A stretch of DNA of 10,882 nt from a virus (IMGVR_UViG_2681813320_000023); one strand, 5' to 3'. Counted from the stretch's first letter, positions 2,051 to 2,774 are shown. The notes: generated by a model not told the origin, from the sequence alone. A program made the numbers and translations.

Positions 2051-2224
2051 TCAGTCTGGTTCAGTTCGTTGCCATACCTGCAATGAGCGCTTTTCCCTGT
2101 ACTCTTTAAGGAATTGCTCAAGGGCAAAAGCACATGGCGCGAATCTTTCTGATTCATGCTCTATCTTTCTGCGCCGTCTTTTCCGTGCTGGTGATAATGT
2201 TTTGGTCAATTCTTTATCGGTCAT
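2051..2224 (-). CDS. Hypothetical small basic protein (57 aa from MTDKEL; 62 aa if the upstream ATG at 2239 is used)
   Basis: Minus-strand ORF downstream of the RHH-like gene. AGGA lies 7 nt upstream of the ATG at 2224. Charged, helix-like composition with an RKRRRRK stretch. No recognisable family. Confidence 0.3.
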   Translation of the reverse strand: MTDKELTKTLSPARKRRRRKIEHESERFAPCAFALEQFLKEYREKRSLQVWQRTEPD

Positions 2225-2281
2225 TGTGTTGTCCTGCATAGCAATGCGCCGTAATACCTCACACCACGGCGCTGATAGTGA

Positions 2282-2587
2282 TTATTCTGATTCTTTGGCC
2301 TTGCGGCGCTGTAGTTCTTCACGAGCGATGGCGATAAGTTGCCCGAGTTCTTCCGTAGCTTTAATACCAATTTTTTCCACTTGCGCCAATGCATCGAGAG
2401 AAGAAATCAGAGGATTTTCACTGCTTCCTTCTGCCTGGCGGCGGGCGATCTCCCCGCGCATGGCGGTTACTATGAATCCGGCGTTGCTTTCGCCGTCCAG
2501 TTTTACGGATTCCATGCCATCAAAAGCATCATGTGGGATACGAATTGAAATCTGTTTTGATTTGTCGTTGATAGTGTTTTTTGCCAT
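2282..2587 (-). CDS. Putative ribbon-helix-helix DNA-binding protein (101 aa), candidate repressor of the divergent leader promoter
   Basis: Minus-strand ORF. RBS AGGAGA lies 6-7 nt upstream of the ATG at 2587 (MAKNTIND...). N-terminus KQISIRIPHDAFDGMESVKLDGESNAGFIVTAMRGEIARR fits a beta-strand / helix / G-x-S-N turn / helix RHH pattern. Transcribed divergently from an operator-rich promoter region. Confidence 0.5.
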   Translation of the reverse strand: MAKNTINDKSKQISIRIPHDAFDGMESVKLDGESNAGFIVTAMRGEIARRQAEGSSENPLISSLDALAQVEKIGIKATEELGQLIAIAREELQRRKAKESE

Positions 2588-2609
2588 GTGCATTCTCCTA
2601 AACAAAAGA

Positions 2610-2686
2610 TGTGATTCAGTATACACAAAAAAGAATCACAAAAAACACTTGACCTGTGATTCAGTTGAATTTAATTTAAATCACAC
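2610..2686. promoter_or_regulatory. Divergent promoter/operator region: TGTGATTCAGT direct repeat (2610-2620, 2655-2665), inverted half-site GAATCACA (2633-2640), candidate sigma70 promoter TTGACC (2649-2654) - 17 bp - TAATTT (2672-2677)
   Basis: Read directly from the sequence. The repeats overlap the putative -35/-10 spacer of the rightward promoter and a TATACT -10-like element on the minus strand upstream of the RHH-like gene. Confidence 0.45.
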
Positions 2687-2774
2687 CTCAGTAAGAGGAT
2701 GTAAACGACAACGCCCCGAACTGTTTGCGGCAGTAGCGGGGCGTCTAACCAAACCGTTAACAGGAGTAACGATT

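Follow-up and report, generated by a model that had tools for sequence, protein, structure and literature searches.

The 10.9-kb stretch of viral DNA analysed here (IMGVR_UViG_2681813320_000023; 10,882 nucleotides, called the window in the following) is a complete phage-satellite island, bounded by its integrase gene on the left and by the interrupted tqsA gene on the right. Its gene content and order match those of EcCICFT073, including the genes ylcI and orf62. EcCICFT073 is the prototype of the Gram-negative phage-inducible chromosomal islands (PICIs) and carries capsid and decoration homologues (PMC6092414). The subject of this analysis is the ylcI-like gene of the island (2282..2587, minus strand) together with four short candidate operators next to it. 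Judging from sequence comparison and structure models, the ylcI product is probably an autoregulated ribbon-helix-helix (RHH) repressor that silences the replication operon. The evidence consists of the predicted fold of the protein, the positions of the sites relative to two promoters in 18 distinct loci, and site sequences that change with the class of the beta-strand.

The YlcI-like protein

The ylcI reading frame starts with an ATG at 2587 and stops at 2282-2284. It encodes 101 aa, with a predicted N-terminal RHH domain (residues ~9-55) and a long C-terminal helix (59-100). A sequence-only reading of the same DNA had given this gene the same coordinates and an RHH-like N-terminus, both of which hold. 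The product matched the YlcI/YnfO N-terminal domain model (NCBIfam NF041551) over residues 9-50 with 65.7 bits (cutoff 30; E value 2.8e-18) and also matched phrog_6522; RefSeq gives it the same YlcI/YnfO name. The family is annotated yet uncharacterised. No description of a YlcI/YnfO or phrog_6522 function was found in the searchable literature, which leaves many subscription papers outside its coverage, so that the absence is no proof.

When residues 1-56 were modelled alone (mean predicted local distance difference test score, pLDDT, 85), the chain was extended up to residue 18 and was followed by a helix (19-28), a G-E-S loop and a second helix (35-54). The full-length model had the extended N-terminus, the helices 19-28 and 35-54 and the long helix 59-100 (pLDDT 70-93). 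The predicted domain follows the RHH topology of beta-strand, helix and helix in ~45 residues. The turn between RHH helices, G-x-S/T/N, by which the start of the second helix is brought to the phosphate backbone, is present as G32-E33-S34, and E33 was invariant in 26 homologues. Among the structural neighbours of the model, RHH antitoxins prevailed (HicB, MazE9, TacA, Rv0298). An RHH fold of the 101-aa product is supported by these predictions, in line with what the sequence-only reading had expected of a structure model.

The homologues (n=207) were well conserved save for residues 2-17, which form discrete classes (QISIRIP, QLTTVRVP, QMTTLRVP, QSLTARIP, QQLNARFP and Q[IL]KN[IV]R[IV]P among them). 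Positions 12, 14 and 16 are presumably the DNA-facing residues, by comparison with the Arc sequence. Short natural versions of 59-63 aa without the C-terminal helix were found in EcCICFT073 (locus L027), L007 and L008. A tblastn search of 50,697 phage records with the ylcI protein returned no match at E ≤ 1e-3; P4 and the sequenced phages therefore have no close ylcI relatives.

Candidate operators and promoters

The intergenic region comprises 187 bp (2588-2774), up to the ATG at 2775. TGTGATTCAGT occurs exactly at 2610-2620 and 2655-2665, 45 bp apart. The sequence-only reading had reported this pair correctly along with one inverted half-site, of which there are in fact two: GAATCACA at 2633-2640 and AATCACA at 2679-2685 (AATCACA at 2634 and 2679, 45 bp apart). 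Read as 8-bp units (TGTGATTC/GAATCACA), the repeats form four candidate operators, O1-O4, which alternate in orientation and follow one another at 22-25 bp, roughly two turns of the helix.

The sites lie on two candidate promoters. The rightward promoter P_R (2649..2677, plus strand) consists of TTGACC (-35, 2649-2654), a 17-bp spacer and TAATTT (-10, 2672-2677), and is the positional counterpart of PLE in P4. For ylcI, a leftward -10 element, TATACT, was found at 2618..2623 (P_L, minus strand), with no good -35. Both promoters had been noticed before, and the rightward pair is positionally conserved in relatives. O1 (TGTGATTC; 2610..2617, plus strand) is directly downstream of the leftward -10 and over the predicted ylcI transcription start, and O2 (GAATCACA on the plus strand; 2633..2640, minus-strand orientation) falls in the -35/spacer region of the leftward promoter. 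O3 (TGTGATTC; 2655..2662, plus strand) lies in the P_R spacer, where it abuts the -35. O4 (AAATCACA on the plus strand, 7/8 identical; 2679..2686, minus-strand orientation) comes directly after the rightward -10, over the predicted +1. These positions predict repression of P_R and autoregulation of ylcI.

Exact copies of TGTGATTC were found four times in the window, compared with 0.40 expected, and this number was reached in 1 of 200 shuffles. Three of the four fall within 53 bp, and the intergenic cluster as a whole holds three exact copies and one 7/8 copy inside 77 bp. The fourth exact copy (5430-5437, plus strand) is isolated inside the primase gene and probably occurs by chance. CRP was considered as a binder of the TGTGA motif and rejected: the half-sites are 21 bp apart instead of 6 bp, and the motif changes with the RHH class.

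Site positions and strand classes in related loci

A contig scan gave seven loci, and the sample was widened by exact-protein look-ups. The final set contained 23 further loci, which together with the window (WIN) make up 18 distinct loci from ~12 genera. Most of these 18 loci have sites at about +22, +45, +67 and +90 relative to the ylcI ATG. Fewer sites were detected in EcCICFT073 (two), L002 (three) and L007 (three); the two clear sites of EcCICFT073 are those flanking the P_R -10. A TTGA-type -35 (TTGTTG in L013) was found in 18 loci at +58 to +64, mostly at +62 (in L006 by eye), and a TAnnnT -10 lies 17 bp past it in 13/18 loci. The leftward -10 is kept at the same place in relatives as TATACT, TATAAT, TATATT or TATAGT. 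In most loci, the P_R spacer contains one site, and one further site each follows the -10 elements of P_R and P_L.

Position is thus constant, whereas the half-site sequence changes with the beta-strand class, of which 12 were distinguished. Class QISIRIP goes with TGTGATTC, QLTTVRVP with TGTGTTTC, QMTT[VI]RIP with GTGTATTTC, QMTTLRVP with GTGATATAC, QSLTARIP with TGTAAG and QQLNARFP with GGTATTCA. The KN classes have GTGTGTAT or GTGTGCAT, and QALKARVP, the class of EcCICFT073, has GTGGGCCAC. This conserved placement and class-dependent sequence favour the earlier proposal that the repeats of the 187-bp region are operators.

The sites follow the strand class and not the neighbouring genes. 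Across six genera (Escherichia, Serratia, Edwardsiella, Klebsiella, Yersinia and Salmonella), class QISIRIP goes with TGTGATT even though the AlpA identity is 36-58% or no AlpA was detected. Conversely, L017 has an AlpA that is 98%, an integrase that is 96% and a first rightward gene that is 88% identical to those of the window, yet another strand class and other sites. L019 has other sites as well, with orf62 98% and the first rightward gene 89% identical. In L009, residues 23-101 of the protein are 99% identical, yet the strand and the sites differ. AlpA, orf62 and the first rightward protein were also considered as the site-binding factor. None of them tracks site identity across the loci, and they were rejected because their identity dissociates from the site sequence.

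The sliding identity between the window and L009 or L017 dropped only from ~-68 to +130 around the ATG, and the flanks were 90-100% identical. Between the window and L022, the same stretch was the best-conserved block. This exchanged block corresponds to ylcI codons 1-22 plus the operators. By its mosaic pattern, we read the beta-strand (residues ~11-17) and the operators as one exchangeable specificity cassette, i.e. an immunity type. The short protein versions and the two clear sites of EcCICFT073 give a hint that the long helix perhaps serves cooperative binding to four sites.

Long rightward open reading frame on the opposite strand

A long, Eta-like open reading frame (ORF) of 377 aa runs on the plus strand from 1839 to 2972. 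It begins 58 nt after alpA, passes antisense through the terminator, orf62, ylcI and the operators, and ends in an Icd-like domain. The sequence-only reading had called the regulator divergent. The opposite strand is correct, but the gene is not simply divergent, as it sits antisense in the Eta-like ORF. The Icd-like domain (NCBIfam) was found in the long ORF with an E value of 1e-16, in P4 Eta with 1.4e-20 and also in the equivalent ORF of EcCICFT073, which has 428 aa. The Kil-like first rightward gene (2775-2972, plus strand) is a nested in-frame product of 65 aa with its ATG at 2775; BLASTP of this Icd-like product against the P4 cI/Eta ORF gave no alignment. The arrangement corresponds to eta/kil of P4, with a long ORF after a Vis/AlpA homologue, an Icd-like end and a nested in-frame short product.

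The rightward frame is open far more often than expected by chance, as under selection. Over ylcI, it was free of stops in 16/18 loci, where ~4 were expected (P 0.11-0.37 per locus in synonymous resampling). Over the 185-bp intergenic region, it was open in 11/18 loci (shuffle P0 0.006-0.04 each), and over the class-specific operator part in 14/18 loci, compared with 1.1 expected; the other two frames had one to six stops there. A rightward frame of 0.9-1.6 kb (1782-2972 in the window; 2767-4053 in L027; also in most of L002-L021) was stop-free from the terminator through the operators in 13-14 of the 18 loci. In several relatives, MxHKTKA forms the start of the long ORF and is accompanied by a strong Shine-Dalgarno sequence.

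The conserved leader is read in differing frames among the loci; hence, what is conserved there is only the openness and not the rightward peptide. Since third codon positions coincide, the codon-position test was unable to separate the strands, and amino-acid conservation was used instead. The ylcI frame was more conserved than the antisense frame in 104/105 pairs (identity 0.61 vs 0.54; BLOSUM62 3.0 vs 2.2). It is also the only one of the two with family and fold support, and library scans gave no family match for the antisense translation upstream of the Icd-like domain. It is probable that the rightward ORF is used as well. By analogy with P4, the kept-open frame suggests AlpA-driven, translation-coupled read-through.

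The N-terminus of the long ORF in EcCICFT073 (L027 2767-3240) contains a fragment that resembles Ant/Bro-N antirepressors (residues ~50-82; PHROG E values 6e-5 to 6e-4). This suggests that Bro-N/AntA genes were once located between alpA and ylcI, or are so in other loci (L010-L016, L020).

Leftward operon and leader hairpin

orf62 (2051..2239, minus strand) is co-transcribed after ylcI and encodes a small, basic protein of 62 aa that appears to be accessory (phrog_21027, E value 1.6e-15). The identical sequence is present in EcCICFT073, where RefSeq annotates a 57-aa hypothetical protein from an internal start. Many loci, those of Serratia, Edwardsiella, Yersinia and Salmonella among them, retain ylcI and its sites without orf62, and scans of the family libraries gave no toxin family for it. 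RefSeq leaves orf62 unannotated in both genomes with this island allele (L001, L024), and the Prokaryotic Genome Annotation Pipeline (PGAP) places an icd-like pseudogene opposite, at 1839-2396. Because genes on both strands compete for the same DNA, annotation in this zone is a systematic problem.

The ylcI-orf62 operon ends at an intrinsic terminator (1928..1955, minus strand), a hairpin with a U7 tail (-22.4 kcal/mol, z = -3.3), which the sequence-only reading had rightly described as clean. In the rightward direction, the hairpin is a poor terminator because its plus-strand tail is CUUUCUG.

Between P_R and the first rightward gene, a leader hairpin (inverted repeat I6; 2711..2744, plus strand) is kept in 18 loci, with compensatory changes in the inner helix. 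The alifold energy was -17.7 in the leftward and -7.7 in the rightward direction, and the U-rich tail is on the leftward strand. On that strand, the hairpin resembles an intrinsic terminator upstream of the ylcI promoter. Rightward of the hairpin, a conserved UCUAACCA(C)CAAC is followed by a small hairpin that looks as if it sequesters a ribosome binding site.

RNA elements in the rightward operon

RNA immunity elements were found at 3003..3207 on the plus strand, namely a c4-a1b1/isrK-like target (3003-3094) and a C4 antisense RNA (3120-3207). The Rfam scores were 46.8 bits for c4-a1b1 (RF03163, 3003-3052) and 72.6 bits for C4 (RF01695, 3120-3207); the isrK match (3016-3094) reached 35 bits, which is below threshold. 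Both elements lie after the first and ahead of the second Icd-like unit. The operon contains a CI/C4-type RNA and its target, which is also part of the P4-type arrangement. RefSeq annotates a 154-aa Icd-like protein at 2965-3429, the N-terminal two-thirds of which overlap the RNA genes, a unit of the P1 immI / P4 CI type.

In this island, C4 adds an RNA layer downstream of the RHH module, as read from the sequence. Among the 18 relatives scanned, C4 was found in L009 and L021 only; the RNA layer is therefore optional, and the RHH cassette is constant. In these two loci, isrK and C4 lie inside Pfam Phage_ASH (PF10554) ORFs (L009 2933-3118; L021 2936-3121). PF10554 may largely describe translations of RNA-gene regions or of Eta-like ORFs.

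Gene order of the island

The integrase gene (1-1218) forms the left end of the island. It is followed by alpA (1593..1781, plus strand; Pfam Phage_AlpA, E value 5e-18; 47% identity to P4 ORF88/Vis), which lies upstream of the ylcI operon and is convergent with it. Further to the right are a primase gene of the D5/P4-alpha type (4030-5862), a lambda-E-like capsid gene (7109-8164) and a decoration gene (8176-8511). The N-terminus of tqsA occupies 10718-10882 (minus strand), and the island is inserted in this gene, adjoining pntB. As the tqsA N-terminus forms the right end, the window holds essentially the whole island. An annotated twin of the island (L024) is also inserted in tqsA.

With the order int-alpA-primase, a size of ~11 kb, a chromosomal site, capsid and decoration homologues and no tail or lysis genes, the island is a Gram-negative PICI of the EcCICFT073 type. 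The island coordinates of EcCICFT073 were drawn from the supplement of the paper. The int-alpA RNA motif of Rfam (RF02996) was not found at threshold in the 375-bp gap between int and alpA of the window (1219-1592). It was found between these genes in L004, L005, L010, L011 and L015.

Proposed regulation and alternatives

From this arrangement we infer the following course. RHH dimers, probably coupled into higher oligomers by the C-terminal helix, would bind the four 8-bp sites. O3 and O4 bracket the P_R -10, and their occupancy would switch off the operon leading to the primase and replication genes; O1 and O2 bracket the ylcI promoter, and their occupancy would amount to negative autoregulation. 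Upon helper induction, AlpA would activate rightward transcription, which, going by P4 eta, would be translated through the Eta-like ORF. The translated transcript would pass the direction-biased terminator, escape premature termination and cross the ylcI operon head-on. Such a read-through transcript would enter the replication operon regardless of P_R. An AlpA-dependent expression of an 'ORF3' fusion downstream of alpA has been reported for EcCICFT073 and is compatible with the release step (PMC6092414).

Beyond this, the nesting of repressor and operators antisense in the translated Eta-like ORF could constitute a toggle by convergent transcription, in which the RHH protein shuts P_R and limits itself, and AlpA-driven translated transcripts silence the repressor operon. 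We put this forward tentatively and consider it more doubtful than repression itself. If true, it would account for AlpA being essential and for the repressor having gone unseen in Gram-negative PICIs. It would also mean that selection acts on the continuity of the ORF across the promoter/operator region, with the peptide not conserved.

Four other explanations were weighed against the repressor. The RHH protein might bind the sites mainly as an activator or architectural factor, aiding AlpA, replication or packaging, and not as a maintenance repressor. The family has no characterised function in the searchable literature, the leftward promoter is without a -35, as is common in activated promoters, and Mnt of P22 represses Pant and activates its own promoter. 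YlcI/YnfO relatives presumably lie next to terminase genes in lambdoid prophages, going by the prophage maps of K-12. However, the sites fill the P_R spacer and cover the +1 of both P_R and the leftward promoter, which are typical repressor positions, and an exchangeable specificity cassette is a signature of immunity regions. The placement of the sites agrees better with a repressor than with an activator or architectural factor, and we regard the latter as unlikely. Alternatively, the minus-strand ORF might be no functional gene at all, the real product being the long rightward ORF of an Eta/Bro network and the repeats binding AlpA, a host protein or a helper protein. The rightward frame is indeed kept open far beyond chance, earlier annotation as well as PMC6092414 and PMC10111431 treat the region as unidirectional, and PGAP calls its icd-like pseudogene there. 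Against this, the ylcI product matches a curated family with members in lambdoid prophages and is predicted to form an RHH domain, and its frame is the better conserved of the two in nearly all pairs. The antisense translation matches no family before the Icd-like domain, the leader frame differs among loci so that the rightward peptide is not conserved there, and site identity follows neither AlpA nor orf62 nor the first gene. A spurious minus-strand ORF is thus improbable.

Even less probable is a type II toxin-antitoxin pair, in which the RHH protein would act as antitoxin to an orf62 toxin and the repeats would do no more than autoregulate the two genes. RHH antitoxins dominate the structural neighbours, 19/26 members have a weak Pfam match to an Rv0623-like antitoxin family, and a small gene is next in the same operon. 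Type II pairs have a conserved toxin gene next to the antitoxin gene, and none was found here. orf62 bears no toxin signature, and many loci retain ylcI and its sites without it, so the reading fails. Moreover, O3 and O4 lie around the conserved promoter of the operon on the other strand, a placement that a pure autoregulator of such a pair would not need. It is hardly credible that the repeats arose by chance or are remnants devoid of any regulatory role. The motifs are short, the region is AT-rich and the primase gene has a further exact copy at 5430, but sites that cluster, keep their positions in 18 loci and differ in sequence by class are incompatible with chance and exclude it.

Several observations weigh against the autoregulated RHH repressor. 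The whole case is computational. The beta-strand was not called in the monomer models; RHH proteins pair their strands in the obligate dimer, as a two-stranded antiparallel sheet that reads the major groove, so this is expected but no proof. The sole Pfam match of the protein, seen in 19/26 members, was below threshold (PF07704 PSK_trans_fac, E value 0.017), Foldseek of the model against the Protein Data Bank (PDB) gave no match, and a profile search of PDB sequences with the ylcI family gave no RHH protein. P_R and P_L are weak by consensus, and a generic promoter scan listed neither. The co-variation is confounded by linkage, as the strand codons and the sites lie within ~100 bp. Cooperative binding to four sites cannot be universal, because the 59-63-aa versions have no helix and EcCICFT073 has two clear sites. 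The release step is an analogy with P4, where vis and eta overlap; in the island, 58 nt separate alpA from the long ORF. Finally, published fusions gave AlpA-dependent activation with no need to invoke a repressor (PMC6092414).

Distribution and implications

The module was found in at least 676 of 5426 complete Escherichia coli genomes (at least 12%), Nissle 1917 and ATCC 25922 among them. The prototype EcCICFT073 carries it with the short ylcI version, and the identical ylcI protein also occurs in islands of the capsid-forming type (cf-PICI). The sequence-only reading had supposed a private module; it is neither private to this island nor rare.

AlpA is the published activator of Gram-negative PICIs, which have been described as unidirectional, with an unclear global repressor; the contrast with Stl-repressed PICIs 'is a mystery' (PMC6092414). 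The earlier remark that no repressor has been described for them is accurate with respect to this source. PMC10111431 and PMC11773190 likewise describe them as unidirectional, with the repressor not identified. We found no RHH or master repressor of Gram-negative PICIs in the searchable literature, the coverage of which leaves out many subscription papers. As a conserved and exchangeable unit, the RHH-operator cassette offers a concrete candidate for the repressor that has been missing and would define immunity types for these satellites. Its parts are ordinary; the nested-antisense arrangement is unusual. The cassette would also be relevant to the engineering of PICIs as delivery vehicles, for which control of basal repression and of induction is needed.

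Comparison with known systems

In its proposed function, the module resembles immI of P22, where the repressors Mnt and Arc act at Pant/Pmnt. The differences are that P22 immI has one compact operator instead of four separated 8-bp sites ~22 bp apart, that the controlled operon there encodes an antirepressor and here leads to replication genes, and that ylcI is nested antisense in another ORF. No sequence homology of the ylcI product to Mnt/Arc was detected by the PDB profile search or by phage tblastn. Mnt has a helical C-terminal tetramerisation domain after its RHH domain; in the ylcI product, a C-terminal helix is predicted at 59-100, which the short natural versions lack. The plasmid regulators CopG and omega are RHH dimers that bind short repeats and repress promoters of replication or maintenance. 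The AATCACA core of the present sites is similar to WATCACW, the omega heptad, a likeness that may be coincidental; omega heptads are contiguous, whereas the present sites are ~22 bp apart.

The immI operon of P1/P7 (c4-icd-ant) has the C1 repressor at its promoter. It shares with the island a protein repressor at the promoter, a proposed one in the island, and an operon that combines an Icd-like gene with a C4 antisense RNA. In contrast, C1 is unrelated and encoded elsewhere, and the payload of the island operon is replication genes. With Stl/Rpr of the Gram-positive PICIs (Staphylococcus aureus pathogenicity islands, SaPIs), the ylcI product shares the proposed role, as Stl is a satellite repressor divergent from an excision/replication operon and holds its island in quiescence (PMC6092414). 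Stl is larger, unrelated and relieved by helper proteins that bind it, whereas the course proposed here involves no antirepressor from the helper; the documented trigger in Gram-negative PICIs is activation by AlpA, unlike the relief of Stl.

The immunity region of P4 (PLL-vis-eta/kil, PLE, CI RNA) is similar in its layout: an AlpA/Vis homologue with 47% identity is followed by a long ORF ending in an Icd-like domain, with an internal promoter, a nested short product, a CI/C4-type RNA and the primase downstream. P4 differs in that no YlcI-like gene was detected, that there is little room for one and that its immunity is described as RNA-only. Compared with P4, the proposed RHH repressor and its operators, nested antisense around the PLE-like promoter, would be the one addition in the island. 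The island in turn differs in that alpA and the long ORF do not overlap, and most of its relatives are without C4. In P4, eta follows vis and holds PLE and the CI RNA, and translation of eta lets transcripts from the upstream promoter escape termination (PMC10111431). The frame kept open across ylcI and its candidate operators fits this logic of eta, and we infer that the same logic of release would operate in the island.

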